DNA of 64,000 nucleotides, from the NCBI GenBank assembly GCA_944381515.1, contig CALWLM010000118.1:37137-101136 (forward strand). Reading direction: 5' to 3'. Each line of letters opens with the position of its first letter. Positions within the stretch are counted from its first letter, which is position 1. Origin of the DNA: an uncultured Lachnospiraceae bacterium (lineage in GTDB: Bacteria > Bacillota > Clostridia > Lachnospirales > Lachnospiraceae). Shown here piece by piece: positions 9,438 to 54,658 of this stretch. A program made the translations under genes and the position numbers. The notes below the pieces were generated by a model. The model was not told the DNA's origin and made no database searches. It saw nothing but the letters and a program-made list of their open reading frames with translations.

Positions 9438-9540
9438 CCGCGCACCTCCGAACGTATTTTAGTATTTAGTAGGATATTAGTAGGAACAAAGACAAAGAAT
9501 TTTATTTATCACAGTTTGTCACAGGATTCAATACAGGATG

Positions 9541-9554
9541 TTTAAGCGATTAAA
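9541..9554. promoter_or_regulatory. candidate LacI-family operator, copy 1 (TTTAAGCGATTAAA)
   Basis: A 14-bp near-palindrome with a central CG (half-sites TTTAAGC / TTTAATC). It is located in the 5' region of the divergent minus-strand GH operon. Confidence 0.45.
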
Positions 9555-9627
9555 TCATTATATATTAAAGTTTAACAAAAATACTGCGGTTGTCAATAAC
9601 TTTTTAGTAAAAACAATGAAAAAAATC

Positions 9628-9656
9628 TTGACATATCCCAGAGTATAGGCTATTAT
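9628..9656 (+). promoter_or_regulatory. sigma-A type promoter for the LacI-family regulator gene
   Basis: TTGACA - 17 nt - TATTAT, ~150 nt upstream of the ATG at 9804. Confidence 0.5.
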
Positions 9657-9671
9657 GTAGGTGAAGCTGAA

Positions 9672-9685
9672 TTTAAGCGATTAAA
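9672..9685. promoter_or_regulatory. candidate LacI-family operator, copy 2 (identical TTTAAGCGATTAAA)
   Basis: An exact second copy of the 14-mer, 16 nt downstream of the -10 of the 9628-9656 promoter. This is a typical repressor roadblock position. Confidence 0.45.
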
Positions 9686-9803
9686 CAAACCGGCAGTAAA
9701 ACGACAATAAGTAAACGGCAGCGAAGCGCCGGAGAGGAGACAATATAACTTTACTTTCAAATTAATTCAGCCTAAATCCGGGAGATGAAGAGAGGAAAGA
9801 TAA

Positions 9804-38312: not shown

Positions 38313-38507
38313 GATACCATCCTCTTTGTCATAAGCTCTTAAGGAGAGCATTGCCAAATTGGCGCGTCTTATTCAGCCATACTTGAAAATAGGCGCGAAA
38401 GGAAGTAAAATAAAACAGACTTCGATAGAAGGCCGGTCTTGGCCCCGGTAATGGCCGGCTGCTCTCAGACGAGACGGTATATAACTGTATGGAGAAAAGG
38501 AGTTTTT

Positions 38508-39563
38508 GTGGAAAAAACCAGATTGTTGATATTGTTCGGCGGTCAGTCGGCAGAGCACGAGGTGTCCTGCCGTTCTGCCGTTACGGTGATCCGGGCAGTG
38601 AATCCGGAGAAATATGAGCTGCTGCTGGTGGGAATTACCAAGGAGGGACGCTGGGTAAAGACGGACAATGCAGACCAGATCGAGAAGAATTGCTGGCAGA
38701 CCGGCAAAACCTCAGCGGTGCTTTCGCCGGACGCTTCCTGCCGCGGCGTCTGGCTGATGGACGGAAAGAAGATGCAGTTTTGGCCGGTGGACGCAGCATT
38801 TCCGGTGCTGCACGGCTGGCTGGGAGAGGACGGGAGCGTTCAGGGGATTTTTGAACTGGCCCGCATTCCCTATGTAGGCTGCGGCGTTCTGTCGTCGGCC
38901 ATCGCCATGGACAAAGTATTTACAAAGCGAATTGTAGAGGGGCTGGGGATTCGTCAGGCGGCCTATGTGGTTCTGCATAGAAGACAGCTCTCCGATATGG
39001 ACCGGGCCATAGGGCAGGTAGAGGATAAGCTTTCCTACCCTGTCTTTGTAAAGCCCTCCTGCTCCGGGTCCTCCCGCGGCGTCAGCCAGGCGAAAAACCG
39101 GGCGGAACTTAGAGAAAGTCTCATGCTGGCTGCTGGCTACGACCGCAAGCTTCTGGTGGAGGAGACGATCACAGGGCGGGAGCTGGAGTGCGCCGTGCTG
39201 GGCGGGGAGGAGCCCAGGGCCTCCGGTGTGGGAGAGATTCTGTCTGCGGCCGCCTTCTATGATTATGACGCCAAGTATAATAATCCCCAATCCCGTACGG
39301 TGGCAGACCCGCAGCTGCCGGGGGATGCAGCCGCGCAGATCCGGCGGGATGCTGTGGAGATATTCCGCGCCGTGGACGGCTGGGGAATGGCCAGGGTGGA
39401 CTTCTTTCTGGAGGAGGCCACCGGCCAGGTGGTTTTCAATGAAATGAATACCATACCGGGATTTACCTCCATCAGCATGTATCCCTTTTTGTGGGAGTCC
39501 AGAGGCTTGTCGGTGGAAAATCTGGTGGAGCGTCTGATTCGTCTGGCCTTTGCCAGGGAATAG
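38508..39563 (+). CDS. ddl: D-alanine--D-alanine ligase
   Basis: TRLLILFGGQSAEHEVS N-terminus and an ATP-grasp core. GTG start at 38508 after AAAGGAG. Confidence 0.85.
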   Translation: MEKTRLLILFGGQSAEHEVSCRSAVTVIRAVNPEKYELLLVGITKEGRWVKTDNADQIEKNCWQTGKTSAVLSPDASCRGVWLMDGKKMQFWPVDAAFPVLHGWLGEDGSVQGIFELARIPYVGCGVLSSAIAMDKVFTKRIVEGLGIRQAAYVVLHRRQLSDMDRAIGQVEDKLSYPVFVKPSCSGSSRGVSQAKNRAELRESLMLAAGYDRKLLVEETITGRELECAVLGGEEPRASGVGEILSAAAFYDYDAKYNNPQSRTVADPQLPGDAAAQIRRDAVEIFRAVDGWGMARVDFFLEEATGQVVFNEMNTIPGFTSISMYPFLWESRGLSVENLVERLIRLAFARE

Positions 39564-39660
39564 GGAGACTTTATAGAATTTATTGAGGAAAAACTTTTCT
39601 ATTTATGCTATTTAAGAGAATTTGGGTGCGGCAGAATGCAGCTGCCAGGGAGTGAGAAAG

Positions 39661-40548
39661 ATGGAGAGAGATTTTACAGCGGATAAGAACGCCCCGGTGG
39701 GGGTATTTGATTCCGGCGTGGGCGGCCTGACTGTGGTTCGTGAAATTATGCGCCAGATACCCGGTGAGGATATTATTTATTTTGGAGACACGGCCCGCGT
39801 GCCTTATGGAAGCAAGTCCAAGGCTACGATAATTCGTTATTCCCGCCAGATCGTCAATTTCCTGCGGACCAAAAAGGTCAAGGCCATTGTCATAGCCTGT
39901 AATACGGCCAGCGCGCAGGCCCTTCAGGTTATTGAGGCGGAGCAGGATATTCCCGTGCTGGGGGTTATAGGCGCCGGCGCCAGGATGGCGGCTCAGGTGA
40001 CCAAAAATAATCGGATCGGCGTCATCGCCACGCGGGGAACCATCGACTCCGGCGTCTATGGACAGGTCCTTCACGGACTGGACCCACGTTTTCAGGTGTT
40101 TGGAAAGGCCTGCCCGCTGTTTGTGCCGCTGGTGGAGGAAGGTCTGACCCATGATTTTATCACCGAGGAGATTGCCCGGCGCTATGTGAAGGATCTGCAA
40201 TATAAGGATATTGACACGCTGATTTTGGGCTGTACCCATTATCCCCTGCTTCGTACGCTGCTGCGAAAGGTGATGGGGCCTGGCGTCACGCTGGTTAATC
40301 CTGCCTATGAGACGGCTATCGAGCTCAAAGAGCTGCTCAGAGAACGGGGGCTGGCCAGGGACGAGCGTTTGGACGGACAAGCCGACTACCGCTTTTATGT
40401 AAGCGATCTGGCGGATCAGTTTCAGGAATTTGCCGCTTCGATTCTGCCCTATGATATTCATCAGACCGAGCAGATCGATATTGAGGAATACGGCACGCTG
40501 CGGGAAGAAACGAGGGAGGAGAGCCATGACCCGGAAGGTAAGGATTGA
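39661..40548 (+). CDS. murI: glutamate racemase
   Basis: VGVFDSGVGGLTV and GCTHYPLL catalytic cysteine motifs. Confidence 0.85.
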   Translation: MERDFTADKNAPVGVFDSGVGGLTVVREIMRQIPGEDIIYFGDTARVPYGSKSKATIIRYSRQIVNFLRTKKVKAIVIACNTASAQALQVIEAEQDIPVLGVIGAGARMAAQVTKNNRIGVIATRGTIDSGVYGQVLHGLDPRFQVFGKACPLFVPLVEEGLTHDFITEEIARRYVKDLQYKDIDTLILGCTHYPLLRTLLRKVMGPGVTLVNPAYETAIELKELLRERGLARDERLDGQADYRFYVSDLADQFQEFAASILPYDIHQTEQIDIEEYGTLREETREESHDPEGKD

Positions 40549-41150: not shown

Positions 41151-41693
41151 TTATTCGGAGGCCAGGCTGTACTCGATGGAGGTTATCTCATCGTTCTCGA
41201 TGATGAAGGACAGCTTTACGCTGCCTTTTACATAGGTGTAAGCATTACCGCTCTGCGTATAATCCTCACCGTAAGCGGCGGTCATATCGGCAGTCGTCAT
41301 GTAAAGGGACACGCCCTCGGGGGTAGATGCCAGGTCGTCCCGCAGGGCGATGGTGGAAATTTCATTGACGCCGTCGGCATTGGGGATGGTGACGATCTCC
41401 ACGCTGCCGTAAGTATAGGTGTAGTCGGTGCCCTGTCCGGCGCAGCTGGGGGCGCTGAATACGTTATCCGTCTCGCCGACTGCGCTGATCATATCATCCT
41501 GAGCCATGCCGGGTACCAGCTTCTGGCCGTTGAGCTCAAAGTAAAAGCCTTCGTCCGCCGCAGCCGCAGCCGTGGTCTCGCTTCCGCCGGCAGCCGTGGT
41601 AGAGGTATTGGAATCTCCGCCGCAGCCTACAGCCAGGAGAGCGGACAGGCACAGTATCAGCGCACAGGCAGTTAATTTCTTTTTCATTACCAT
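41151..41693 (-). CDS. hypothetical lipoprotein
   Basis: Lipobox LAVGC, a Thr/Ala-rich linker, then a ~130-aa domain. AGGAG lies 6 nt before the ATG at 41693. Confidence 0.5.
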   Translation of the reverse strand: MVMKKKLTACALILCLSALLAVGCGGDSNTSTTAAGGSETTAAAAADEGFYFELNGQKLVPGMAQDDMISAVGETDNVFSAPSCAGQGTDYTYTYGSVEIVTIPNADGVNEISTIALRDDLASTPEGVSLYMTTADMTAAYGEDYTQSGNAYTYVKGSVKLSFIIENDEITSIEYSLASE

Positions 41694-41886
41694 TAAATCT
41701 CCTTCCTTTTGAAAAAGCAATCATTCAAAATTTTCATCGTCTAGTTTAGCGCATTTTGATGGAAGAAGCAAGCCCTCTTTTGACAAAGAGAGGATAGCTT
41801 TAAGCGAGAACGGGATTACATCTTCTGTATGCAGGACGTAAGGAATATAAGTTTGTTTTTCGTACAATAGATTGCTTTTCTTGTTC

Positions 41887-42563
41887 TCATCCCGCTTTTA
41901 TATAGGCCTGGGCCTCGTCGCGGGACAGATGGAAAGTCAAAATCAATTCTTCTGCAATTTTGCTGTCGGAGCAGCCGGCCCTGCGCAGCATCGCGATTGC
42001 CCCTGCTATTCCTGCCCGCAAGCCTTCTTCCCGTCCTTTTTCTTGACCTTCTTTGCGTCCTTCTTCCCGTCCCTGGAGAAGACCTTTTTCCTCACCCTGC
42101 TTAATATAACGATCCAGCAGTTCACACATAGTGATTCCTCCTTCCTGTTTCAGAAATTCATTGGCTAGGATATCCAGATATCGTTTATCCTTGGTGAGTT
42201 CGGCCAAAAGCCGAAGCACCTCAGATACATGTTTTAGCTTGTGGGCTGAGAAAGCTGTTCCCTTTTGCACACTGCGGAAATATTCTGCCACAGCGCGAAA
42301 ATCGCTGTGAAAGCAGGAAATCTGTTCATCGGACAGGAAGGCCATCTCGAAGAGATTCATCTGATAATCATTTACATAGGGCTTTAACCGATCTTCTATC
42401 GGGATGGCTTCACTCAGTTTTCTTGCCTTTTGCCAGTGGGCCCGTCCTCCAATTGATCTTCCGCAATCAGTTTTTCACCGGAAAAAAGCAGAGTATTTAC
42501 AATATCTGCGAAAACATCGTTGTAGGATTCCAGGCGTTTTTCAGCAATATCTTTTTGTCCCAT
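41887..42563 (-). pseudogene. remnant of an Rpn/YhgA-family (PD-(D/E)XK) recombination-promoting nuclease / putative transposase gene with an internal deletion and frame break
   Basis: An N-terminal fragment (MGQKDIAEKRLESYNDVFADIVNTLLFSGEKLI...) ends at a stop. A second ORF carries only the family's C-terminal region with EGR/EKG repeats (...GREEGRKEGQEKGREEGLRAG...). The catalytic core in between is missing. Confidence 0.4.
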
Positions 42564-42649
42564 TTTACTTTTGTACCTCTTTCCGGCAGAACCGCAAAGG
42601 GCTCTGCCTATAGTATATCCCATCGGGTGTTGTTTTTCAATTTGCTTTT

Positions 42650-42956
42650 GAGAGGAATGCGTGGGGTGGATGCGTGATGTATGAAATGATGCATGAAACA
42701 ATGCGCAAAGAAGTGCGCAAAGAAATATAGAAAACAAGAAAGAACCTGAAAACAGAAAATTGAGGAAATAAAAAACGAGAAAAAGAGAAGAAAATAACGA
42801 GAAAACAAACAGGGCGAAACAGGAGAGCCGGAAAGCAATAAGAAAGAGAAATAGAAACAGAAATCAAAGTAGAAATAAAAGTAGAAGTAAAAGTAAAATC
42901 AGATGTGAAAACAGAAGAAAAAGAAATGGGAGCAGGAAGGAGGCGCAGGGAAAGCA
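42650..42956 (+). repeat. ~300-bp polypurine (A/G) low-complexity tract with degenerate short tandem units
   Basis: Almost exclusively A/G on the plus strand (for example gtagaaataaaa gtagaagtaaaa gtaaaatcag; tgcgcaaagaag tgcgcaaagaaa). No credible ORF. Confidence 0.5.
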
Positions 42957-42968
42957 GCCTCCCTTCCT
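42905..42968 (-). terminator. rho-independent terminator of the Dlt-like operon
   Basis: AGGAAGGAGGC-N12-GCCTCCCTTCCT hairpin, followed on the minus strand by CATTTCTTTTTCTTCTGTTTTC. Confidence 0.55.
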
Positions 42969-43044
42969 GTCCGATAAGATCATTTTAGCATATCGTTGGT
43001 TTGCATTGCAAGTTTTATGTTTTATATTCCCTTATATTCCCCGA

Positions 43045-44085
43045 CTAATTTCCGGCGGCGATCTCCGCCTCCTGACGGGCCTTATCCTCCTGATACCAGA
43101 GGGCCTTTTCCTGCCAGGCAGCCTCCAGAGCCTCTTCTCCGCGGCGGCTCTCCAGGCCGCACTGATCCCGCAGGATGGCTCCGAAGTAGTGGGACAGCTT
43201 TTCTGCTCCCGACAGATTCAGATGGAGCCCGCCGTCGTAGGTGTCGGTCTGAAAATCCAGCCCGGCCTCGTCGGCCTGATCCAGAAGATTTACATAGAGA
43301 AGATCATGCTCGTTGGCATAATCGACGATCTGAGCATCCCACTCGTCGTACCAGTAAGGGTAAAGGCTGGGCGCCTTGACCAGCACCAGCTGGATGCCGT
43401 TTTCCTCGCAGAGGATGCGGATCTTGTCCAGATATTCCATCTGCGCAGCGTCGATGGTATAATCTCCCAGAGGTCTTCCCTCCGGTACGTTTTCGGCGGG
43501 AAGGGAATCCACCCGCATATAGTAGCCGTTGTGGGAGACCAGATCCCGGTGGAAGAGATAGGTGAAATCATCCGCCGTCAGCTCCGTGATCCGGGAATGG
43601 TAACGCAGCAGAGGAAATACATAGTCGAGGAAGGATTCCTCCTCTGTCATGGAATCCAGAATGGCGTTTACCTTGGAAAGGGACCAGCGCATGCCATCCA
43701 GAGTCATCCGGTTGTAGGATTCCCTGGGAGCCTCGTTGTAGGGAACAGCCAGAACGCTGAAGACCACCACGTCGGGAGTCTCGTAACGCAGGGTATCCTC
43801 CAGAATATAATAGGACTGGCTCACCAGCTGCTGAGCGCTGCCCCGGATATAGCTGTTGATTCCGTATTCCTCCCACAGCACCATGGGGGAGAAGTTCTCA
43901 TAGACCTCGCAGTCTCCCAGGAAGATCACGTCGTGATCCTTTTCTTCATCGTAGTATTCGGCGATAAAGTTGCCTTCCACCACATCGTCCATATATTTAG
44001 GCATAACCAGGCGCTGCAAGAGATACAGGCTGCCGGCGATAAACAGTATTATGACGACGGCGGACAAAAACTTTTTCTTTTTCAT
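43045..44085 (-). CDS. signal-anchored SGNH-like (AlgX/AlgJ/DltD-analogous) protein, predicted extracytoplasmic acyl/aminoacyl transferase
   Basis: N-terminal TM (FLSAVVIILFIAGSLYLL). C-terminal block DGGLHLNLSG resembles the SGNH D-x-x-H block. The N-terminal block reads FLGDCEV instead of GDS. It is the last gene of the operon with the MBOAT. Confidence 0.5.
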   Translation of the reverse strand: MKKKKFLSAVVIILFIAGSLYLLQRLVMPKYMDDVVEGNFIAEYYDEEKDHDVIFLGDCEVYENFSPMVLWEEYGINSYIRGSAQQLVSQSYYILEDTLRYETPDVVVFSVLAVPYNEAPRESYNRMTLDGMRWSLSKVNAILDSMTEEESFLDYVFPLLRYHSRITELTADDFTYLFHRDLVSHNGYYMRVDSLPAENVPEGRPLGDYTIDAAQMEYLDKIRILCEENGIQLVLVKAPSLYPYWYDEWDAQIVDYANEHDLLYVNLLDQADEAGLDFQTDTYDGGLHLNLSGAEKLSHYFGAILRDQCGLESRRGEEALEAAWQEKALWYQEDKARQEAEIAAGN

Positions 44086-44096
44086 GGCCGTCCTCC

Positions 44097-45686
44097 TTAA
44101 AACTGATTGTAGATGAACTGGGTGGCGTCATAGCCGATGCCGTAAGCGCCAAACAGAATCACGATGAGGAACAGGCCATACCAAGCAATAACGCGCACCG
44201 GCAGGGCGCGGGCGGCGATGAGACCGCGCACGGACTGGCCTTTTTCCTGAATCCGGCTGATGATAAAGACCAGAATCAGAGATACCAGGAGAATCCAGTA
44301 ATCTACAGCGGACAGGCCGATGGCAAGCAGGCTTCCATCCCAGAATACCGAGAGACGGAAGGATGTAAACATGCTGACAAAAGAGCGGACCACAGTGGAG
44401 ACGCTGTCATAATAGTCAAACATGCACAGAAGGCTTACGAACAAGAAGGTACGGACCATTCGAAAGCTATTCCACAGAGCATTTTTTTCCAGCCGGGGGA
44501 AACGCTCGTAGAAGCGCCGGTAGGAAGGCTCCAGCTCCTGGGACAAAAGCAGAAAGAAGCCGTTTAACAGCCCCCAGACAACGAAGTTCCAGCTGGCGCC
44601 ATGCCAGATGCCGGTGGACAGCCACACGGTCATGGTGGCGGTGTAGACAGTGAAACGGCGGCTTAAGCCCTCGTGGCCGGCGGCCTTCATCTTCTTGGCC
44701 CGGGCCAGCATGGCAGGACTGGTGGAAATCGGATAGAACAGATAGTCCTTAAACCAGTTGCACAGAGATATATGCCAGCGGTGCCAGTAGTCCTTCAGAC
44801 TCTTGGAGAAATAGGGCCGCTTGAAGTTTTCCGGCAGGGTGATGCCCAGGGCCTGGGAAAGACCGATGACGATATCGATACCGCCGGAAAAATCCATATA
44901 CAGATCGATGGCATAAAAGATCATGCCGACGAAAACGTAAGCTCCGGTATAGGCGGACGGGTCGCCGGATATGGTGGTCAGGCCGGCGATAATCCGGTCT
45001 GCTATGACCATCTTTTTGAAGTATCCGTAGAGCATCCGCTGCAGGCCGAAGGATACCTGCCTGCCATCGAAGGGATGACTGGCATAGAGGTCCTTTGACA
45101 GAGAGCCAAAACGGCTGATGGGGCCCTGGATCAGCTGCGGGAAAAAGGAGACGAACAGAGAAAACTTAAAGAAATTTCTCTCCGGCTCGTATTCTCCCCG
45201 GTACAGATCAATCAGATACCCCATGGTCTGGAAGGTGTAAAAGGAAATGCCCAGGGGAAGAGTCAGCTGAAAGAACAGATCTTCCCCGGAGGCTCCGAAA
45301 AGGCCGCTTATGTTGGAGACAACAAAGTTTCCATATTTGATGACGCCCAGAATGCCGAAATTGAACAGCAGGGCGAATATCAGCCAGGCCTTTTGCTTTT
45401 TCTTGACCGCAGCCTTGTAGGCTTTCTTTTCCTCGCGGCTGAGCTCATCCTTATGCAGCTTAAGCCTTGCGTCCTGCCTGCGCTTAAGCTCCCAGATCCG
45501 CAGAGACACAAAGTAAGCGCAGATCGTGGTGGACAGGATATAGCCCAGGTATTTGACTCCGGAAAAGCAGTAAAAGGCGTAACTGGCAATAAGCAGCAGG
45601 GCCCACTGCCACCGGCGCGGAATCACATAATAGAGAATAAGCAGCAGTCCGGCAAAAAGCAGAAAGCTGTAGGAGGTGATGGACAT
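44097..45686 (-). CDS. MBOAT-family membrane O-acyltransferase (AlgI/DltB-like, long form)
   Basis: ...FYTFQTMGYLIDLYRG... and the conserved His region (WHRWHISL). 529 aa, polytopic. Confidence 0.8.
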   Translation of the reverse strand: MSITSYSFLLFAGLLLILYYVIPRRWQWALLLIASYAFYCFSGVKYLGYILSTTICAYFVSLRIWELKRRQDARLKLHKDELSREEKKAYKAAVKKKQKAWLIFALLFNFGILGVIKYGNFVVSNISGLFGASGEDLFFQLTLPLGISFYTFQTMGYLIDLYRGEYEPERNFFKFSLFVSFFPQLIQGPISRFGSLSKDLYASHPFDGRQVSFGLQRMLYGYFKKMVIADRIIAGLTTISGDPSAYTGAYVFVGMIFYAIDLYMDFSGGIDIVIGLSQALGITLPENFKRPYFSKSLKDYWHRWHISLCNWFKDYLFYPISTSPAMLARAKKMKAAGHEGLSRRFTVYTATMTVWLSTGIWHGASWNFVVWGLLNGFFLLLSQELEPSYRRFYERFPRLEKNALWNSFRMVRTFLFVSLLCMFDYYDSVSTVVRSFVSMFTSFRLSVFWDGSLLAIGLSAVDYWILLVSLILVFIISRIQEKGQSVRGLIAARALPVRVIAWYGLFLIVILFGAYGIGYDATQFIYNQF

Positions 45687-45688
45687 GC

Positions 45689-45919
45689 TTATTCCTCATC
45701 TTCCAGGCGCTCGATCAGAGCCCACAGGGCCTGAGCCGAGTTGAAATTCTCCGGGATAATATCCTTGGCGGAAATGTTTACGTCAAACTCATTGTTGATT
45801 TCCGCGATCAGAGAGACGATGTCGAAGGAGTCCAGGATCTCGTCGTCGATCAGCGTATCGCAGGTCTCAAAGTCCACATCGGGGTGCAGGTCGTTTAAAA
45901 TCTCCAATAAGGTATCCAT
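45689..45919 (-). CDS. DltC-like aminoacyl/acyl carrier protein
   Basis: 76 aa. ...DEILDSFDIVSLIAEINNEFDV... parallels the DltC phosphopantetheine-Ser region (...LLDSFGTVELLLAIENRFDI...). Confidence 0.7.
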   Translation of the reverse strand: MDTLLEILNDLHPDVDFETCDTLIDDEILDSFDIVSLIAEINNEFDVNISAKDIIPENFNSAQALWALIERLEDEE

Positions 45920-45921
45920 AG

Positions 45922-47448
45922 TTATCTTTTCCTTTCCTTTAAATAATTTTCTTTTAGAAGCACACGGTTGATTTTACCGGTAGCTGTCAGAGGCATGGTC
46001 TCCAGCTGGCGGATGGTGTTGGGAAGCATGTAGCGCTGGAGCTTTTCTTTCAGGGCCTGCATCAGATCTTTTTCGCTGATGCCGCCCACATAGAAGAGGA
46101 CAATCTTGCCCTTTTCCGTATCGTAGATGCAGCCGGAGCTTTTGATTTCGTCCAGCATGTTCACATTGGCCTCGATCTCGCCCAGCTCGATGCGGTGGCC
46201 CATATGCTTGATCTGAAAATCCTTGCGGGAGACGAATACCAGATCGCCGTCCTTGTTAAAGCGGCCGATATCTCCGGTCCGGTAGATGAGCTCCGGCCAG
46301 GATTTGTTCAGCGGATTCTGCACAAAGGAGGAGGCTGTCCGCTCCGGATCGTTGATGTAGCCCAGAGAAACCGCCGTTCCGCGAATGCAGATTTCTCCCT
46401 GTTCGCCGGGGGCGGCCAGGGTGTTGTCGTCCTTTAACAGCAGAATTTCCGTGTTTTTGAAGGGACGGCCGATGGGGATGGCCTCGTCCAGACCAAACTC
46501 CCTCTCCACATGGTAGTAGCAGCAGACGCCGGTGCCCTCGGTGGGACCGTAGAGGTTGGTAAAGCGCGCGTTGGGCAGGGCCCGTTTCCAGATATTGAAC
46601 TGCTTCACCGGGAAAACCTCGCCCACAAAGGCGATGGTATGCAGATATTTTGGAGGCAGCTCCGTAAGAGCGCCAAAGGCCGACAGCATGGTCAGTGCCG
46701 AGACCACCCAGCACAGGGTGTTGACCTGATGTTCATTTAAAAACTCCAGGACTTTCATCGGGAATTTGAACATGCTCTTGGGCACGATGTAGGCCGTGGC
46801 CCCGCACTTCAGCGTAGGATAGATATCCTTTAAGCTGGCGTCGAAGTAAAGAGGGGTCTGGTTGGCAAAAACCGTATCCTCGTTAAAGCCCAGGGTCTCT
46901 GACAGCTGTTCGATGTAGTTGATCAGAGAACGGTGGCAGGCCGCCACGCCCTTGGGGATGCCGGTGGAACCGGATGTAAAGAACACATAGACCGGATCGG
47001 TGTCAATGGTGCGGCTGCGCACATTCGCCAGAGCGGCTGCATCGGCCGGGGTCTGAATCAGGTCGCCGTAAAGCCAGAGTTCGCCGTCAAAATCAAAGGT
47101 GCGGGCCGTATCCAGAGTGGTTTCATCGCAGATAATGGCTCTGGGATGAAGATTTTGAAGGATTAAATCAATGCGGGCCCGGGGCATTTCCTCGTCGATG
47201 GGGACATAATAGCAGCCCCCCTGCAATACGCCCAGGAAGGCGACGACCGCATTGGGATGGCGGTTCATAAAGACCACCACCGGCTGGCGGAACATCCCCA
47301 GGGCTGCAAGATAAGAGCCGATGGAACGGCTTCTGTCATCCAGCTGCCGGAAGGTGACGCCGTCTTCTTGGCTGACGCCGCCAAAGGCCAGTTTGTCCGG
47401 CACGCGCCGTACAGTCTGATCCAGATAATCCAGAATGTGATTTTGCAT
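45922..47448 (-). CDS. DltA-like adenylation enzyme (amino acid--carrier protein ligase)
   Basis: FTSGSTGIPKGV, NLYGPTE, FQIKHMGHRIELGEIE and ATGKINR motifs. 508 aa, i.e. DltA-sized. RBS AAAAGAGG. Confidence 0.8.
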   Translation of the reverse strand: MQNHILDYLDQTVRRVPDKLAFGGVSQEDGVTFRQLDDRSRSIGSYLAALGMFRQPVVVFMNRHPNAVVAFLGVLQGGCYYVPIDEEMPRARIDLILQNLHPRAIICDETTLDTARTFDFDGELWLYGDLIQTPADAAALANVRSRTIDTDPVYVFFTSGSTGIPKGVAACHRSLINYIEQLSETLGFNEDTVFANQTPLYFDASLKDIYPTLKCGATAYIVPKSMFKFPMKVLEFLNEHQVNTLCWVVSALTMLSAFGALTELPPKYLHTIAFVGEVFPVKQFNIWKRALPNARFTNLYGPTEGTGVCCYYHVEREFGLDEAIPIGRPFKNTEILLLKDDNTLAAPGEQGEICIRGTAVSLGYINDPERTASSFVQNPLNKSWPELIYRTGDIGRFNKDGDLVFVSRKDFQIKHMGHRIELGEIEANVNMLDEIKSSGCIYDTEKGKIVLFYVGGISEKDLMQALKEKLQRYMLPNTIRQLETMPLTATGKINRVLLKENYLKERKR

Positions 47449-47575
47449 GATTACCTCTTTTCAAAATGTTCTTGATCTTAAATATCTTGGCTGACGAGGC
47501 GGGGAAAGCTCCCCGCCATCATCAACATAGCATGATTTGCGGGCAGATACAAGCCCGGCTGCCGTAAAAAGTTTA

Positions 47576-50500
47576 TTATTCAACCTCCGGATAGAGGCTC
47601 TTGTCGTACACGTGGGTGCCGTTGTGCGTGGAGGAGTAGGCCTCCAGCTCTGCATCCGTCAGATAGAAGAAGGTGGAACCGTCCTTTCTGGGCGTGCAGT
47701 CAAAGTGATACCAGCCCTCGCCGATGTTGACCAGACTCCAGAAATGGGTCGGGATATCGGTGGAACCCTCCGGCACCACCTTGGCCACGTCGATGTTGGC
47801 GATACCGGCGCGGGTCAGCAGGAATTTGGCCTGAGCGGCATAGGTGAAGCAGTCGCCGCTGTGCTGGGTAAAGCCCTGGTACGCTCCCAGAGTGTAATCT
47901 TCCTCCTGGGCATGGCTGGTATAGCTGGTATTCTGACGAATCCAGTTGTAAATAGCCCGGAGCTTCTCCATTTCGGTCATGTCATCCGTGATGATCTCCG
48001 CCAGGATTTCGTCTGCCATGGCGTTCACCTCGTCGATGTCGGCCACTTCTGCATCCGCCTCCAGCACATAGACTGTGCCGGTGGCAGTGGCGGCGTTGCC
48101 GGAGGAGTCGGTGACGGTGGCCGTATAGGTGTAATCGCCGACGGTATTTAAATCTACCTGGCTGTTGTCCGCTTCTACGGTCAGCTGATCTTCGGTGTCC
48201 AGATTGTCATAGGCCCGGATCGCTTTTTTGTAGGAAACGGTGCCGCCCACGGTCACATGAATGTCGTCGGCAAAGACCTCGGGAGCCGCCGTATCCTTTA
48301 CGACCAGCGTGGAGGAGAGGGTCTGATCCCCCGCCTGTATGGTTACCGGATATTCTCCAGGGACGCTGGTATCCACCTCGGGCTCCGCGGAAAAGGAGAC
48401 GGCGTCCGCCGTTATGCCCTGGCCTTCCAGTACGGACAGATATTCATCGGACAGAAAGGCGGAGGCGGCGGGAATCTCCTCGCCGGTACCGATTTCCACC
48501 GAGGGTCTGGCGCCGCTGACGGTCAGGGTGGCAGTCACGGTAGCGCTGTTGCCGGCGGCGTCGGTGAGTATAATCTCCACCTGCTGATCGCCGTCGGTAT
48601 ACAGATCGGGCTCAGAGGCAAAGGCCGCGGTTACTTCGGTGGCATCCTGCAGCTGATCGATAAAGTCCATGGGCTCCACAGCTTCACCGTAAGCGGTGGT
48701 TACAGCTTTGGTGGTAGCCGCTGGCTTGGTAGTATCCTGTACATGGATGGTGGAATGATAGGTAAAGGGCGACAGGCGGATTTCCACCTCATAGTCTCCT
48801 GGTACACTGGTGTCGATATTCAGGGGCTGCGTATTTTTGGCCTTGTCGCCGTTATAGCGCATCAGATCCGCAGTGGTGATGGAGGCGCCCGCTTCCACAT
48901 TGAGGGTGCCGATCACGCGGCGTCCAAAGTAAAGGCCGACTGCCAGGCAGATAACGGCGATGAAGGCTGCGGCGCCGATGATAAAGGGCAGCGTCTGGTT
49001 CTTGCGGCGGCGAGGCGGCCGGGATGCGCCTCCGCTTCCGTTTGTTCCATTTCCCCCATTCCTGCCGCCATTTCCACCGTTTCCTCCGTTACGGCTGCTG
49101 CCGCTGCGTCCGGCGGCTTCCGGACGGGGACGGCGATTTGACGCGGAGGGACGGTCTGTCCCCTGGGCGTTTCGCTCCTTGTCCCGGGGCGAAGGGGCGG
49201 AAGTTCTGGATGCGGCAGAGGCGGTGTGCCTGGGGCCGGATTCTTTGAGAACGTCCGTCTCCGGAACGAAGCGCTTGGGCGTATGGGCTGCCGGTCTGGC
49301 TGCCGGGGCCGCCGTTCGCTCGGAAGCGGAAGTACGGCCGGCGGAGCTGCTGCCTGAACTGCTGCCGGAACCGGCGCTGCGTGTGACCGGCTGACGGCTG
49401 GAGACGGACGGAGTCCGGCTCTGGCGGGTCAGGGGAATCACATTGATGCCGTCGTCGGGACGGCCGGGCACGGTCAGGCGGGGAGCCTCATTGTCTTTTT
49501 TCAGTTCCTCCAGCACAGTGGGAGAGGGAGCTGGCGCCTCCTGCTTTTGCAGGCTGGCGAATACGGAATCTGCCAGCACGGAATCCTTCAGCATGGAATC
49601 GGTCAGGACAGAATCTCCCAGGGCAGGATCGTCAAATACGGTATCGGCGTGGGCACCGTTTTGGAATACGGAGTCAGAGCTTCTCTGCTCCTGCATATGA
49701 ACGGAAGCCTTGGGACTGTCCAGCCGGGGGCTGCCCAGCTCGGGCGTGTTGAGCAGATGGCTGGGAATACCCTTGCGCACCAGGCGGATACCCTTTTTAT
49801 GATCGGCAAAATAGATATTGGGCAGATCGCGGCTCAAAAAGAGGTAGCCGCCCTCCGTCACCGAATAGGCGCCGATATTATGGAACAGGAAATAGTCGCC
49901 GATGCGCAGATCCTGTACCGGGAAATTGCGGGCCACCACGTCGTTAAAGGTACACAGGGAGCCGCACAGCATATAGGTTTTGGGAGGCTCGTCCTTTATC
50001 CGGTGCATGGGTACATGCTCGATCCGGGGCGTTTTCATGGCCATATTCTGGCCGTAGTAATTGATATGGTGAATGCCGCCGTCGATGATGCAGTAGCCGG
50101 CTTCCTTATTGAATTTAACGTCCTCTGCCCGGGTGGCAAAATATCCGCAGGAAGCCACGGGATAACGGCCCATTTCCAGAATGATCTGGCAGGGATATTT
50201 TTTCTCCTCCAGATAGTCGCGGATGCGGGTCAGATCGGCGAATTCATTGTCAAAGGAATCGTTGGTGAAATAGGGGACCCACAGGCCTGTGCCGTATTCC
50301 ATCTGTTCCGGCTGGAAATCATAAATTTCTTTCAGCTTGTCGCAGAAGCCGAATACATATTCCAGCTCCTCGATGGTATGGGCCACTTTCTTTTTCTGAG
50401 TGCCGGTGAAATACTGAATGCCCAGAATGTGGACATAGGGATTTAACTGCCGGCGGGCTATGATCTGTTCGATATCCTCCTCGTTCATGCCAAACTGGGA

Positions 50501-50920
50501 GCCGTTGGTCAGACGCAGAATCACCGGAATTACCTGGCGCAGATTGGTTGCGCATTCCGATATCAAATCAAACTGGTGGACGGACTCCGCGGTCATGACG
50601 CCTACCCGGTAATTTGCGGCGACGCGCACGGAGTCGGCAGTCTTATTGATGCCGGAGAAAACCACTTTATCCATGGGGATGGCGCAGTTTTTGCAGATCT
50701 CCAGTTCGCCGGGGGAGCAGACCTCGTACTTGGGGACCAGATCGTCCATTGCGTTCAGAACAAAGGGATTTGCCTTGACGGCATAGCACATTTTGGCACG
50801 GTCTCCAAGAAGCTCGCAGATCATGGCCACCTTGCGCCGCAGTATGTCAAGGTCAAAGATATAGGCAGGCGTCTGGATGACGCCGTTCTTTACATTGGAA
50901 ACAATATCCTGATATTCCAT
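47576..50920 (-). CDS. chimeric membrane protein: N-terminal PLP-dependent Orn/DAP/Arg-type decarboxylase, low-complexity linker, single TM, Ig-like repeats, C-terminal transglutaminase-like domain
   Basis: A continuous 1114-codon ORF. It carries CYAVKANPF (PLP Lys) through GAYSV (decarboxylase). It carries the TM LPFIIGAAAFIAVICLAVGLYFG after RPPRRRK. It carries three TSVPG(D/E)Y...GN..T Ig-like repeats. It carries GDCFTYA / THFW / YHFD (transglutaminase Cys-His-Asp). Confidence 0.7.
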   Translation of the reverse strand: MEYQDIVSNVKNGVIQTPAYIFDLDILRRKVAMICELLGDRAKMCYAVKANPFVLNAMDDLVPKYEVCSPGELEICKNCAIPMDKVVFSGINKTADSVRVAANYRVGVMTAESVHQFDLISECATNLRQVIPVILRLTNGSQFGMNEEDIEQIIARRQLNPYVHILGIQYFTGTQKKKVAHTIEELEYVFGFCDKLKEIYDFQPEQMEYGTGLWVPYFTNDSFDNEFADLTRIRDYLEEKKYPCQIILEMGRYPVASCGYFATRAEDVKFNKEAGYCIIDGGIHHINYYGQNMAMKTPRIEHVPMHRIKDEPPKTYMLCGSLCTFNDVVARNFPVQDLRIGDYFLFHNIGAYSVTEGGYLFLSRDLPNIYFADHKKGIRLVRKGIPSHLLNTPELGSPRLDSPKASVHMQEQRSSDSVFQNGAHADTVFDDPALGDSVLTDSMLKDSVLADSVFASLQKQEAPAPSPTVLEELKKDNEAPRLTVPGRPDDGINVIPLTRQSRTPSVSSRQPVTRSAGSGSSSGSSSAGRTSASERTAAPAARPAAHTPKRFVPETDVLKESGPRHTASAASRTSAPSPRDKERNAQGTDRPSASNRRPRPEAAGRSGSSRNGGNGGNGGRNGGNGTNGSGGASRPPRRRKNQTLPFIIGAAAFIAVICLAVGLYFGRRVIGTLNVEAGASITTADLMRYNGDKAKNTQPLNIDTSVPGDYEVEIRLSPFTYHSTIHVQDTTKPAATTKAVTTAYGEAVEPMDFIDQLQDATEVTAAFASEPDLYTDGDQQVEIILTDAAGNSATVTATLTVSGARPSVEIGTGEEIPAASAFLSDEYLSVLEGQGITADAVSFSAEPEVDTSVPGEYPVTIQAGDQTLSSTLVVKDTAAPEVFADDIHVTVGGTVSYKKAIRAYDNLDTEDQLTVEADNSQVDLNTVGDYTYTATVTDSSGNAATATGTVYVLEADAEVADIDEVNAMADEILAEIITDDMTEMEKLRAIYNWIRQNTSYTSHAQEEDYTLGAYQGFTQHSGDCFTYAAQAKFLLTRAGIANIDVAKVVPEGSTDIPTHFWSLVNIGEGWYHFDCTPRKDGSTFFYLTDAELEAYSSTHNGTHVYDKSLYPEVE

Positions 50921-50953: not shown

Positions 50954-50982
50954 AGTGTAGCATAAAGAAAAGACCTTGACAA
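50954..50982 (-). promoter_or_regulatory. candidate sigma-A promoter of the chimera/Dlt-like operon (TTGTCA-17-TACACT)
   Basis: Minus-strand -35 is at 50977-50982 and -10 at 50954-50959, ~30 nt upstream of the ATG at 50920. Confidence 0.35.
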
Positions 50983-52206: not shown

Positions 52207-53160
52207 TTAGTAGCCTTCCTTCAGCAAATCCTGGTAGACAGATCGGGAAATTTCAAACTGAGGGGAGCCCATGGAGCCGGGAGCGATCTCATATTCGTCG
52301 AACTGGATTACCAGGTTGCCGTCCTCGGAGAAGAAGAAATTCTGGTCCGGAGTGATGGAGTGAAAATCCATGCCCTCATATTCGGTGTCGATCCAGTAAG
52401 TTATATTGTCGTCCTTTGCCATCTGTTCCTTCATCTGGCGAAGAATTTCATCACTGATGACAGTCTGATAATCGCTTCCCTCCAGGAAAAGGTCAGACAG
52501 CTGTACGATCTGGCCGCTCTGCTTGTCAATATGATAATAGTAGTAGGTCTGCGTGCCGCTGCCGGAACCGTAGTAAACCAGAATCTGCAAGGTGAACCAG
52601 GCGTCGTTGTTGGTAACGACCTGATAGGAGACGGACAGTTCTGTGTGGCCGGAGTCGCCAAGCGCGGCCCGATCGGCCTCAAACTCTGCGATCAGCCGGT
52701 CAGTCATGGCCTGCACATCGGCGTTGATGGCATCTACGGAATCGCCCAGAGAGCTGTTCTCGCTTTCCGTCTCCAGCTCCACCTGAGGCACGTCCACGCT
52801 GGAGCGGTGGTAGCCGTCATCGTAAAAATAGTTGCGAATGGTGATGACCTCCACAATGGCGCCGATGACTGGCAGCTCGCTCATGGTCTCAGCGGCCGAC
52901 GCGCTGATATTGGGAAGCAGAAAAAAGAGGGCGAGTACAGCGGCGGCAGCAGCGGCCGGCCGGGGCAAACGGGGTTTCCTCCGGGAGGAGGACAGCTTGC
53001 GTGCCGCAGGAAATGGCCCTGGCTCTTCCGCCTCATCGGAGGAGCCGGGCGTGCTTGGCAGACGCCTTAAGGTGCGCCGGATGCACTCCTCTGTCTCCGG
53101 AGGAAGCGTAAGTCTTTCCTTCCGTGCCAGACTGCGTATTTGTTTGTCGATAGGGTTCAT
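52207..53160 (-). CDS. anti-sigma factor, RsiV-like (cytoplasmic N-domain, one TM, extracellular DUF4163/DUF3298-like domain)
   Basis: N-terminal ~35-aa anti-sigma segment, TM AAAAAVLALFFLLPNISA, and a ~220-aa extracellular domain. The start is 12 nt after the sigma gene stop. Confidence 0.55.
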   Translation of the reverse strand: MNPIDKQIRSLARKERLTLPPETEECIRRTLRRLPSTPGSSDEAEEPGPFPAARKLSSSRRKPRLPRPAAAAAAVLALFFLLPNISASAAETMSELPVIGAIVEVITIRNYFYDDGYHRSSVDVPQVELETESENSSLGDSVDAINADVQAMTDRLIAEFEADRAALGDSGHTELSVSYQVVTNNDAWFTLQILVYYGSGSGTQTYYYYHIDKQSGQIVQLSDLFLEGSDYQTVISDEILRQMKEQMAKDDNITYWIDTEYEGMDFHSITPDQNFFFSEDGNLVIQFDEYEIAPGSMGSPQFEISRSVYQDLLKEGY

Positions 53161-53171
53161 AACCTTTCTCC

Positions 53172-53660
53172 TTATAGATCGAGCATCGTCTTCAGGCGGC
53201 CTCTGGCCCGGGAGAGCCGGGTTTTGACCGCGCCGGCGGACAGCCCTGTTATTTCACTGATCTGTTTCACGGACATTTCCTCGTAATAGAAAAGGATAAC
53301 AACGGTGCGGTATTCCACCGGCAGGGCCTTTATTGCATCTCCCAGGGCCATATCGGCGGAATAGGATGGAGTATCGGAAGGCTCTTTACCGGGCGGGATG
53401 TCCGAGAGCGAGACGGAAGGCTTGCGTTGGCGAAGAATATCATAGGCCGCGTTATGCAGAATACGTATGATCCAGGGACGAAATTTATCCGGGTCCCTGA
53501 GTGCGCCAAGCTTTTCATAGCCGGCGCACAAGGCCTCCTGGAGGGCGTCTCTGGCATCCTCCTCGTCGCGCAGCAGGCTGACAGCCAGCCTGTAAAGGCT
53601 CGCCTGGCAGGCAGTGATCTGTTCGGTGTACCACTTCTTTTTATCGGTTATATATGTCAT
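53172..53660 (-). CDS. ECF-type RNA polymerase sigma factor (sigma-70 regions 2 and 4)
   Basis: Region 2 (...YRLAVSLLRDEEDARDALQEAL...FRPWIIRILHN...) and region 4 HTH (...MSVKQISEITGLSAGAVKTRLSRARGRLK). 162 aa. Confidence 0.8.
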   Translation of the reverse strand: MTYITDKKKWYTEQITACQASLYRLAVSLLRDEEDARDALQEALCAGYEKLGALRDPDKFRPWIIRILHNAAYDILRQRKPSVSLSDIPPGKEPSDTPSYSADMALGDAIKALPVEYRTVVILFYYEEMSVKQISEITGLSAGAVKTRLSRARGRLKTMLDL

Positions 53661-53677: not shown

Positions 53678-54646
53678 TCATTGGGCAGGCTTTGACTGGA
53701 CGCAGGTTTCGTAGATCCATTGACCCCACTGGGCGTAATATTTGCCGTAAGGGTGCGTATCATCGGCGCTGTATTCTGCATTCAAAGCCCCGTTTTCATC
53801 GTCAAACAGGGGATTGACATCGAGATAAAAAATGTTTTCATTGTCGGCCAGGGCGGCGATTTCCGCATTGAGACGGTTAATATTATCGTTGTTATAGATC
53901 TCGTCTGAGTCGGATCGGCTGGCGGTCAGGTGCAGGTTGGCGCACACGTAGAGAGTGGCCTGGGGCTGCATCTGGCGGATGAAATCTACCACCTCGCTGT
54001 ATTGGCTGACTACGGATGAAAAACTGTATCCCAGTTCGTTGATCCCCAGCATTAAAAAGATTTTACCATAGCTTTTTTGCTCAAACAAGGTGGTCAATGT
54101 TACTTTTCCCACATTCGGCACGGAAACTTCTTCGGAGAGGACCTTAAAGGAGCTCATTCCCGATGTGGCAAAGAAGTTGGCGGTGTCAAGACCGGCGTAT
54201 TCCATCAGGCCCACGGTGCGGGAATCTCCGATAAAGAGCACGTCGGAGAAGAATTCCTCTTTGGTAGGCGTTTCGGAGGGAGCAGCCTCTCCCGACGTAT
54301 TGGAGCCGGCGGTGGTTTCGTTTGTATTGGTTTCGCCGGACTCGTTTCCGGCAGCGGTGGTTTCATCGGCAGGATTACCTGCTGCGCCGGTTTCTCCGGC
54401 GGCCGTCTCGCCTGCCGGGTCTGTCTCGCCTGCCGGAGCTGTTTCATCTGCCGGGAGCGCTGCGCCTGTTTCGTCCTCATTGCCCTGGGGTTCCGTCTGA
54501 GACACGGTGGGAGGCTCCTGGACGATGGGGGTCTGCGTATCGTCAGCATCCTGCTTGAAAAGATCGTTGCGCAGGACAAAGGGCATCAGTACCAGGACAG
54601 AGAGCACGATTAGTATAGAAAAAAGAATATCGGAATGTTTCTTCAT
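53678..54646 (-). CDS. membrane-anchored GDSL/SGNH-family protein (PatB/OatA-C-like O-acetyltransferase/esterase)
   Basis: N-terminal TM, an acidic Thr/Gly/Glu repeat linker (AGETDPAGETAAGETGAAG), the GDS block FIGDSRT and the DxxH block DDTHPY. The stop overlaps the sigma gene start by 19 nt. Confidence 0.65.
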   Translation of the reverse strand: MKKHSDILFSILIVLSVLVLMPFVLRNDLFKQDADDTQTPIVQEPPTVSQTEPQGNEDETGAALPADETAPAGETDPAGETAAGETGAAGNPADETTAAGNESGETNTNETTAGSNTSGEAAPSETPTKEEFFSDVLFIGDSRTVGLMEYAGLDTANFFATSGMSSFKVLSEEVSVPNVGKVTLTTLFEQKSYGKIFLMLGINELGYSFSSVVSQYSEVVDFIRQMQPQATLYVCANLHLTASRSDSDEIYNNDNINRLNAEIAALADNENIFYLDVNPLFDDENGALNAEYSADDTHPYGKYYAQWGQWIYETCVQSKPAQ

Positions 54647-54658
54647 GTCTGTCTCCTC

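Follow-up and report, generated by a model that had tools for sequence, protein, structure and literature searches.

A putative carrier-dependent aminoacyl transfer cluster on the Dlt/MBOAT-SGNH plan, with a Cys-type SGNH protein, in Lachnospiraceae

A gene cluster on the minus strand of a 64,000-nt stretch from an uncultured Lachnospiraceae bacterium (GCA_944381515.1, contig CALWLM010000118.1, positions 37,137 to 101,136; the whole stretch is called the window, and all positions follow its numbering) appears on balance to encode carrier-dependent, extracytoplasmic aminoacyl transfer on the plan of the Dlt and membrane-bound O-acyltransferase (MBOAT)/SGNH systems, and to represent a distinct Lachnospiraceae family with a substrate of the Asp/Glu type. 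Four open reading frames (ORFs) of 508, 76, 529 and 346 aa, encoding an adenylating enzyme (A), a carrier protein (C), an MBOAT (B) and an SGNH-like protein (D), are separated in the ORF listing by gaps of 2, 2 and 11 nt, and a spacer of 127 nt lies between A and an upstream ORF of 1114 aa (47576-50920, minus strand), a chimera of a pyridoxal phosphate (PLP) decarboxylase domain and a transglutaminase-like ectodomain. The preliminary description of this DNA had recognized four tightly packed genes following the chimera on the same strand, with which the ORF coordinates agree exactly, and had called them a Dlt-like but non-canonical surface aminoacylation system, a view that was upheld: the plan is the same, and each Dlt equivalog model tested failed. 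Its limitation of the unit to these four genes proved too narrow. The cluster is a real gene cluster, larger than four genes, and the chimera and a lipoprotein gene ~1.3 kb downstream also belong to it.

A genome scan with one genome per species and two search patterns returned 80 loci. Relatives were present in at least 588 species genomes, nearly all of them Lachnospiraceae (Acetatifactor, Roseburia, Butyrivibrio, Agathobacter and others), and one locus (L003) was 99% identical to the window. When the 80 loci were searched by tblastn with the window proteins, the 56 complete ones (at least 7.5 kb upstream of D) all possessed A, the carrier, the MBOAT, D and a transglutaminase-like gene homologous to the chimera's C-terminal half; 50 of the 56 also had a gene of the Asp/Glu-racemase family, and two had a decarboxylase. 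The commonest gene order, seen in 38 loci, was transglutaminase-like, racemase, A, C, B, D; a few permutations also occurred. The cluster racemases (236-245 aa) matched the aspartate-racemase subfamily TIGR00035 with 208-223 bits and are distinct from MurI. The clade of the window (window, L001, L002) is devoid of the racemase and has the N-terminal PLP decarboxylase domain instead. The lipoprotein gene is conserved next to D in most of the related loci and was counted as the sixth cluster member; in the window it is displaced by ~1.3 kb of probably inserted sequence. This combination of genes was not found described in the searchable literature (an earlier mention in a published bioinformatic survey is possible), and in the Lipocone preprint MBOAT and SGNH proteins appear in a different context only. 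In the source annotations the five window proteins are unnamed, and their homologues are unnamed or bear generic names.

In the proposed pathway, A would adenylate an acidic amino acid (Asp/Glu type) and thioesterify it to Ser31 of the carrier. In the window clade, the BtrK-like domain would then strip the free alpha-carboxylate on the carrier, yielding a beta-alanyl- or gamma-aminobutyryl-carrier, with the decarboxylase anchored on the cytoplasmic side of the membrane through the transglutaminase-like protein to which it is fused; in most other members, the operon-encoded Asp-type racemase would supply a D-amino acid. Through His305, the MBOAT would transfer the acyl group to the far side of the membrane, to its own Tyr526 in FIYNQF, making DltX dispensable, and Cys59 of the D protein would take it up as a thioester (with His288/Asp284 as the base) and pass it to an acceptor in the cell envelope. 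The extracellular transglutaminase-like Cys-His-Asp enzyme and the BLIP-fold lipoprotein would be partners of the D protein. Gene content, folds, motifs, conservation and linkage were computed, and it is from these that we infer every chemical step, the amino acid, its side-chain loading and the acceptor.

Activation and transfer of the acyl group

All A-domain core motifs are present in A, and its TIGR01733 score lies above the cutoff, in agreement with the first description of a 508-aa adenylating enzyme. A remained far below the DltA equivalog models (TIGR01734, 270.9 bits for a cutoff of 559.85; NF003417, 285.5 for a cutoff of 476), and among solved structures DltA was no nearer to it than the A-domains of nonribosomal peptide synthetases (NRPS). 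The ten specificity-code positions were obtained by alignment to GrsA-PheA, and the numbering was checked by recovering the published GrsA code DAWTIAAICK. The resulting code of A is DAKCAVLVCK, with Lys207 (codon 46828-46830) at GrsA position 239. The pocket alignment with DltA that had been recommended at the outset gave two different pockets: read in the same register by HMMER residue-level alignment, the DltA structures 3FCC (B. cereus) and 3E7W (B. subtilis) have D-L-M-T-L-C-T-A-V-K, none of the eight variable positions is common to A and DltA (A-K-C-A-V-L-V-C versus L-M-T-L-C-T-A-V), only the two universally conserved positions agree, and DltA Cys301 is lost in A. The racemase, decarboxylase and polysaccharide-trio forms of the enzyme keep a Lys or Arg at code position 239, and by analogy with the NRPS codes for Glu and Asp, Lys239 may contact a carboxylate of the substrate. 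A V301/V330 variant of the code was considered as a marker of the decarboxylase clade and rejected, as racemase loci have it too.

The carrier scored 20.8 bits for PP-binding, exactly at the cutoff, and failed both DltC equivalogs (NF003464, 30.2 bits for a cutoff of 68; TIGR01688, 21.9 for a cutoff of 52.35). The Ser motif attributed to it at the outset is present as LDSFD, and the protein is 49-53% identical to the carriers of the ligase-decarboxylase-carrier trios treated in the next section.

The MBOAT had been assigned to the larger AlgI-like type, and its 529 aa, two extra transmembrane (TM) helices and terminal FIYNQF bear this out. It is ~100 residues longer than DltB (~400 aa) and reached 158.1 bits with the DltB equivalog TIGR04091 (cutoff 375). 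The predicted catalytic His305 in RWHISL (codon 44772-44774) aligned, as did the core, to RWHMSL of DltB (6BUG). The extra C-terminal helices (residues 451-483 and 492-519) are joined by a basic loop, and FIYNQF forms the last six residues (44100-44117; Tyr526 codon 44109-44111); related loci with an intact MBOAT C-terminus keep QFIYN[QR]F. The acyl-shuttle motif FxYxxF is found either at the C-terminus of DltX or on the two extra TM helices of PatA/AlgI-type MBOATs, and the acyl-Tyr shuttle at this motif is established experimentally for DltX and PatA (PMC12148441). In NgPatA the motif reads FIYANF, and auto-acylation of its Tyr has been demonstrated experimentally (Anderson et al. 2025, PMC12148441). 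Non-Dlt MBOAT/SGNH pathways draw on an acyl-CoA donor and hence have no carrier protein (PMC12148441). A six-frame scan for a terminal FxYxxF after a TM helix detected no DltX-like micro-ORF in the window; among all ORFs ending in the motif, only the window's two MBOATs (that of the cluster and that of a second pair, see below) have it behind a TM helix. The reported lack of a dltX gene thus stands, and the implied lack of its function does not: since the FIYNQF shuttle motif is built into the MBOAT, the DltX function is, as judged from the motif, fused to the MBOAT C-terminus and not absent.

For the D protein, originally described as signal-anchored and SGNH-like, an SGNH alpha/beta/alpha fold was found in the structural comparison, with DltD giving the longest structural alignments; in Pfam, only the C-terminal end of Lipase_GDSL_2 matched, below the cutoff (23.7 versus 32.9). 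The predicted block residues are Cys59 (block I), G82 (block II), N125 (block III) and D284/H288 (block V, DGGLH), and Cys59 follows strand 53-57 and opens helix 59-62, the canonical block I position. Among 63 homologues (down to 62% identity), G57-D58-C59-E60, G82, N125, D284 and N290 were invariant, and H288 was conserved in at least 90%. A profile search of 1.84 billion representatives with the D protein returned 8260 relatives. In an alignment of 119 sequences, comprising the window protein and the 118 full-length 50%-cluster representatives among the top 150 matches, the column of Cys59 contained Ser in 87 sequences and Cys in 31, the Cys forms being the best-scoring block. The FLGDCEV noted earlier in place of GDS is therefore a Cys in a column that is Ser in 87/119 sequences. 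The DGGLHLN block noted alongside it is present, with the spacing D-x-x-x-H (D284...H288) and not D-x-x-H as then given; 32 of the 119 sequences are gapped at one of the intervening columns and have the canonical D-x-x-H. An hhalign comparison of the D family with the window's GDS-type SGNH protein placed Cys59 on the Ser of FIGDSRT, over 15 residues and at an E-value of 0.018 too weak to stand alone.

These comparisons identify Cys59 as a clade-specific replacement at the nucleophile position and not an error, and because Cys and Ser alternate in one superfamily column it is predicted to be a functional nucleophile. In the SGNH acyltransferase TviD, a block I Cys is needed for activity (PMC8760489). 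Two explanations for the distribution of the Cys were rejected: it is not tied to carrier dependence, as the sister operon L092 is carrier-dependent yet Ser-type, and it is not strictly tied to a transglutaminase partner, as the fusion protein P0162 is of the Ser type. The Pfam label PF27429 ('LB_356') is attached, as a precomputed annotation, to P0052, P0055, P0072, P0108 and L093; a recent Pfam release may contain a model that covers part of the family.

The transglutaminase-like core has a Cys-His-Asp triad (Cys1024 in GDCFTYA, codon 47849-47851; His1059; Asp1074) that is at least 95% conserved in an alignment of 73 sequences (72 homologues and the window protein). Its link to the D family extends to direct fusions of an SGNH-like domain to Ig and transglutaminase domains (P0124, Cys-type; P0162, Ser-type) and to overlapping SGNH-like and transglutaminase-like genes in L085. 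The Cys-for-Ser switch, taken with this obligatory transglutaminase-like Cys-His-Asp partner, opens the reading that the end product is an amide (isopeptide) on an amine or glutamine of peptidoglycan stem peptides or of a surface protein, and not an ester, which we regard as possible, with the odds clearly against it. The acyl group would in that case travel from Tyr ester to Cys thioester to amide, an ATP-independent extracytoplasmic 'thiotemplate' addition of Asp/Glu-derived bridges or tags, and the BLIP-fold lipoprotein would be a regulator or inhibitor.

Substrate preparation and competing readings

The N-terminal domain of the chimera contains a predicted PLP lysine (K49 in AVKAN, codon 50774-50776), and its best PDB match was BtrK, the L-glutamyl-[BtrI ACP] decarboxylase (E-value 5e-29, 104 bits; ACP, acyl carrier protein), with which it has the motifs FTGTQ, EMGRY, DGGIHH, GSLCT and IGAY in common. 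Where the decarboxylase domain and BtrK have (F/Y)TGTQ, DGG(I/M)HH and (S/P)LCT, the diaminopimelate (DAP) decarboxylase LysA has HIGSQ, DAGMND and GLCES. Among NCBIfam models, TIGR03099 ranked first (151 bits; cutoff 478), and the DAP decarboxylase model TIGR01048 scored 148 bits, both below cutoff. The fusion of this domain to the transglutaminase-like part is genuine, as L001 and L002 have it in frame and the full-length 1114-aa protein recurs in several independent assemblies. The linker between the two parts contains internal repeats (DSV[LF] units, a GGNGGNGGRNGGNG tract and Ser/Pro/Arg-rich runs) and is conserved to merely 31-32% in L001 and L002. L087 encodes the decarboxylase (66% identical) on its own, in a gene directly preceding the transglutaminase-like and A genes.

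Homologues of the decarboxylase domain (~47-48% identity) in Lachnospiraceae polysaccharide loci sit in ligase-decarboxylase-carrier trios, the ligases of which are 43-44% identical to the window A; such trios were found in L088 and L090. Side-chain-loaded Glu or Asp on an ACP is alpha-decarboxylated to gamma-aminobutyrate (GABA) or beta-alanine by the BtrJ/I/K, CtaD/E/F and FlvN/L/O systems (PMC11350588), and VinN/L/O is a ligase/ACP/decarboxylase module of the same kind (PMC5785472). The trios of L088 and L090 (~7460-10480) lie beside genes for glycosyltransferases, DegT aminotransferases and an EpsG polymerase, in loci that probably specify an aminoacyl-decorated capsule or exopolysaccharide, and L088 also possesses a second decarboxylase with a PylC-like ATP-grasp gene (122-2259).

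A sister operon in L092 (5623-11294) has the same A-C-MBOAT-SGNH order without a transglutaminase or racemase gene, with an SGNH protein of the Ser type (GSSTVY) and an MBOAT ending in FVYMNF. Its radical SAM gene product matched glutamate 2,3-aminomutase better than lysine 2,3-aminomutase (611 versus 441 bits), and its ligase code is DAIRIGIVCK, with Arg278 in the pocket, which suggests a beta-glutamyl version of the pathway. The L092 ligase had been chosen as a basic-substrate negative control for Lys239 and failed as such, the radical SAM enzyme being of the glutamate-2,3-aminomutase type; it now counts as supporting evidence. Because racemase, decarboxylase and aminomutase, the alternatives found at this point of the pathway, all act on acidic amino acids, the acyl group is predicted to derive from Asp or Glu, and that of the window is probably a beta-alanyl or GABA group made on the carrier. 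The preliminary description had held that the substrate cannot be read from sequence, which applies to the exact amino acid, still an inferred one, and less to its class, to which the accessory enzymes point. Its suggestion of a non-Ala, possibly decarboxylated substrate agrees with the failure of the Dlt models, with the pocket sharing none of the eight variable positions and with the presence of a BtrK-like decarboxylase alongside ligase and carrier.

Whether the PLP domain decarboxylates at all bears directly on this assignment. If it were a racemase standing in for the missing Asp/Glu racemase, the window clade would install the D-amino acid that the other family members use; the domain does fill the niche vacated by that enzyme, the window-type code (DAKCAVLVCK or DARCAVLVCK) also occurs in the racemase-bearing loci L008, L013 and L024, there is a weak match to Ala_racemase_N (23.7 bits), and NCBI labels homologues 'alanine racemase'. 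We consider this unlikely, as both decarboxylase domains match far better, including the C-terminal sheet domain unlike that of alanine racemases, the catalytic motifs of decarboxylases are kept (among them the GSLCT cysteine and EMGRY), the nearest structures are BtrK and DAP decarboxylases, and the homologues stand in trios like the BtrK/CtaF/FlvO systems.

Alternatively, the decarboxylase could work on an amino acid in free form, ahead of loading or in unrelated pathways (lysine or polyamine synthesis, for example), its fusion being incidental to the A-carrier-MBOAT-SGNH chemistry. The near equality of the TIGR01048 and TIGR03099 scores would fit such a role, as would the basic residue that the window A pocket retains in common with loci that have no decarboxylase. 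This too seems doubtful, given that fusion or adjacency is kept in at least four lineages (window, L001, L002, L087), that the full-length chimera was found again in independent assemblies, that all close homologues examined adjoin a ligase and a carrier, and that Asp or Glu already decarboxylated would lack the second carboxylate for a contact of the Lys239 type.

Several points weigh against the proposed pathway. Support is computational throughout. BtrK leads the DAP decarboxylases by only ~14 bits (104 versus 90), and the role of Lys239 as carboxylate binder is argued from NRPS Glu codes. One and the same pocket would have to serve both racemase-fed and decarboxylase-coupled routes, which would be awkward if one used alpha-carboxyl and the other side-chain loading; because the same A code co-occurs with the racemase, loading could proceed through either the alpha- or the side-chain carboxyl. 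The cluster racemase also scored above the cutoff of the 'cysteate racemase' equivalog, so that Asp is not the sole candidate, and Asp, Glu and cysteate are indistinguishable as substrates from the present data. The universality of GDC in the 80 loci arose partly by construction, GDCE[VL]YEN being one of the two search patterns. Finally, a strong hairpin lies between the first gene and A, and co-transcription stays putative.

As to the end of the pathway, SGNH proteins are mostly esterases, the GDSL-model match is below cutoff, and the Ser-to-Cys change could be read as degeneration, so the D protein might be a hydrolase that removes the modification, or a dead scaffold, in place of the terminal transferase. 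Such a role is improbable: Cys59, Gly82, Asn125, Asp284 and Asn290 are invariant across the clade and His288 nearly so, alternation of Cys and Ser in one column is the pattern of a functional nucleophile, the protein occupies the position of DltD or PatB beside a shuttle-bearing MBOAT, and the block I Cys of TviD supports acyl transfer (PMC8760489). It is very hard to sustain that the cluster is the organism's rearranged housekeeping dlt operon, D-alanylating teichoic acids, which the same four functional roles, DltA and DltB as the best single-domain NCBIfam names for A and the MBOAT, the long structural alignments of D to DltD and the lack of other, canonical dlt genes within the 64-kb window would favour, but which is opposed by Dlt equivalog scores far under cutoff throughout, by a pocket with no variable residue in common with solved DltA and without its Cys301, by an operon partner (Asp-type racemase or decarboxylase) unneeded for D-Ala, and by a fused shuttle, a Cys nucleophile and transglutaminase-like and lipoprotein partners all foreign to dlt.

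Transcription signals and neighbouring genes

The coordinates of the cluster features and of the signals around them are collected in Table 1. A ribosome-binding site (AAGAGG) precedes the A gene within the 127-nt spacer, which has no U-tract; the folded spacer might function in transcript processing or stability, or as an attenuator. A search of the leader regions of the first gene and of A for riboswitches, as a clue to the substrate, gave no Rfam match at E <= 1. The good terminator announced for the end of the operon was recovered, its hairpin followed by a U-rich tract and located ~70 nt beyond the stop codon of the D gene; a simple hairpin scan had skipped it on account of its bulge and long loop.

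Table 1. Features of the cluster and adjacent signals (window numbering)
Feature	Position	Strand	Basis or remarks
Promoter-like site 5' of the first gene, TTGTCA-17 nt-TACACT with TG	50954..50982	-	Consensus match only, putative
Ribosome-binding site AAAGGAGGG, precedes the 1114-aa gene	before ATG at 50920	-	Strong
Type III PLP decarboxylase domain, cytoplasmic, residues 1-385 of the 1114-aa protein	49766..50920	-	Orn_Arg_deC_N 63.4 bits, Orn_DAP_Arg_deC 38.4 bits; both exceed their cutoffs
Low-complexity Ser/Pro/Gly/Arg-rich cytoplasmic linker, ~260 aa, residues 386-643	48992..49765	-	Sequence
Single TM helix LPFIIGAAAFIAVICLAVGLYFG, residues 644-666	48923..48991	-	Hydropathy; RPPRRRK before it (positive-inside)
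Extracellular Ig-like/Rib and transglutaminase-like core	47576..48922	-	Transglut_core 38.2 bits, Rib 37.5 bits, Bact_surface_Ig-like 35.6 bits
Spacer, 127 nt, with GC hairpin GGCGGGGA-GCUU-UCCCCGCC	47449..47575	-	-45.8 kcal/mol, z = -4.0
Stand-alone amino-acid adenylating enzyme A, 508 aa	45922..47448	-	AMP-binding; TIGR01733 353.7 bits (cutoff 317.4)
Aminoacyl carrier protein, 76 aa; predicted phosphopantetheine Ser31 in LDSFD (codon 45827-45829)	45689..45919	-	PP-binding
AlgI/PatA-type MBOAT, 529 aa	44097..45686	-	PF03062 37.6 bits
D protein, 346 aa, signal-anchored, DltD-like SGNH fold; Cys59 codon 43909-43911	43045..44085	-	Structural and profile matches
Intrinsic terminator, bulged GC-rich hairpin (42929-42972) and U-rich tract	42905..42972	-	-26.9 kcal/mol, z = -3.7
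Lipoprotein, tandem BLIP/DUF4309/BamE-like fold	41151..41720	-	Lipobox LAVGC, Cys33; invariant APSCAG motif

The sequence between the operon and the lipoprotein gene (41887-43040) is a probable insertion, in which GC falls to 48%. It contains an ORF of 157 aa (41887-42360) with no Pfam match, weak matches to FliH-like coiled coils and a homologue in one locus only, and, at ~42400-42930, an AT-rich stretch marked by short direct repeats rich in T. The true start of the lipoprotein is probably Met12. In L062 (Acetatifactor aquisgranensis), a RelB/PIN toxin-antitoxin pair (9173-9913) is inserted between the MBOAT and D genes.

On the plus strand, ~2.5 kb past the 3' end of the operon, lie genes for Ddl and MurI (38439-40548; MurI, 39622-40548, with 256.6 bits for the glutamate racemase model TIGR00067). 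The Ddl/MurI pair is also near the operon in L001 (14073-16046), and its proximity probably reflects synteny of close relatives and not functional linkage.

A second, ordinary MBOAT/SGNH pair, without ligase or carrier, is encoded at 53678-56083 (minus strand). Its MBOAT (474 aa, 54659-56083) is 34% identical to that of the operon and ends in FMYFRF (FxYxxF), and its SGNH protein (322 aa, 53678-54646) has the canonical FIGDSRT and DDTHPY and a long Thr/Glu/Ala-rich linker; the pair is presumably an acetyl-CoA-dependent O-acetylation system. Directly downstream of it on the minus strand, 53172-53660 encodes an ECF-type sigma factor and 52207-53160 an anti-sigma-like DUF4179/DUF3298 protein; the two may serve in envelope-stress regulation.

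Implications and comparison with known systems

The cluster is carried by hundreds of species of Lachnospiraceae, dominant gut commensals with poorly known envelope chemistry. If the proposed pathway holds, these bacteria would attach D-Asp/D-Glu, beta-Ala/GABA or beta-Glu to a surface polymer and thereby alter their surface charge, probably with effects on host antimicrobial peptides, phages and immune receptors. The family would also offer a natural system for asking what benefit an SGNH transferase draws from a thioester intermediate.

The closest parallel in plan is DltXABCD, with which the cluster has in common a stand-alone adenylating enzyme, a dedicated carrier of ~76-80 aa, an MBOAT with catalytic His, an acyl-Tyr shuttle hexapeptide, a membrane-anchored DltD-like SGNH-fold protein and an extracytoplasmic end point. 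It differs in the gene order A-C-B-D, in proteins that fall under the Dlt equivalog cutoffs, in the eight variable pocket residues, none of them common, in a shuttle carried by the MBOAT where Dlt has it on DltX, in a Cys for the Ser of DltD, and in additional conserved genes for a racemase or decarboxylase, for a transglutaminase-like enzyme and for a BLIP-fold lipoprotein. PatA/PatB and AlgI/AlgJ/AlgX resemble it in the large MBOAT (~470-530 aa) with two extra TM helices and terminal FxYxxF and in the separate SGNH partner; these systems use acetyl-CoA without a carrier (PMC12148441), whereas the cluster has a ligase, a carrier and a Cys nucleophile.

For substrate preparation, the BtrJ-BtrI-BtrK, CtaD-E-F, FlvN-L-O and VinN-L-O modules combine the same roles of ligase, ACP and type III PLP decarboxylase. 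They serve cytoplasmic assembly of natural products or polysaccharides, whereas the loaded carrier of the cluster would be handed to an MBOAT for export; moreover, the cluster decarboxylase is fused to a membrane protein, and its ligase is an A-domain where BtrJ is an ATP-grasp enzyme. The exosortase-A-associated TIGR03098/TIGR03099 system is likewise a pair of AMP-ligase and DAP-decarboxylase-like protein recurring in surface-polymer loci, and TIGR03098 was among the better NCBIfam matches of A (193.5 bits), far under its cutoff of 592. Unlike the cluster, the exosortase-A-associated system belongs to proteobacteria and is linked with PEP-CTERM loci, and we know of no MBOAT or SGNH link for it.

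TviD, the O-acetyltransferase of the Vi antigen, is comparable to the D protein in its SGNH fold with a block I Cys and a block V His, both needed in TviD. In contrast to the D protein, it is cytoplasmic, acetyl-CoA-using and fused to TPR repeats, and it has no sequence relationship to it beyond the fold; its Gly-Ser-Cys block is gapped relative to GDS, whereas GDC of the cluster is in register with G[DS]S.

In the published scheme, Dlt systems combine a carrier with a separate DltX, and the others combine acyl-CoA with a fused shuttle (PMC12148441). The family described here joins carrier-protein input with a fused shuttle, and adds to them a Cys nucleophile, a transglutaminase-like enzyme, a lipoprotein and an interchangeable slot for substrate preparation, occupied by a racemase, a decarboxylase or an aminomutase.

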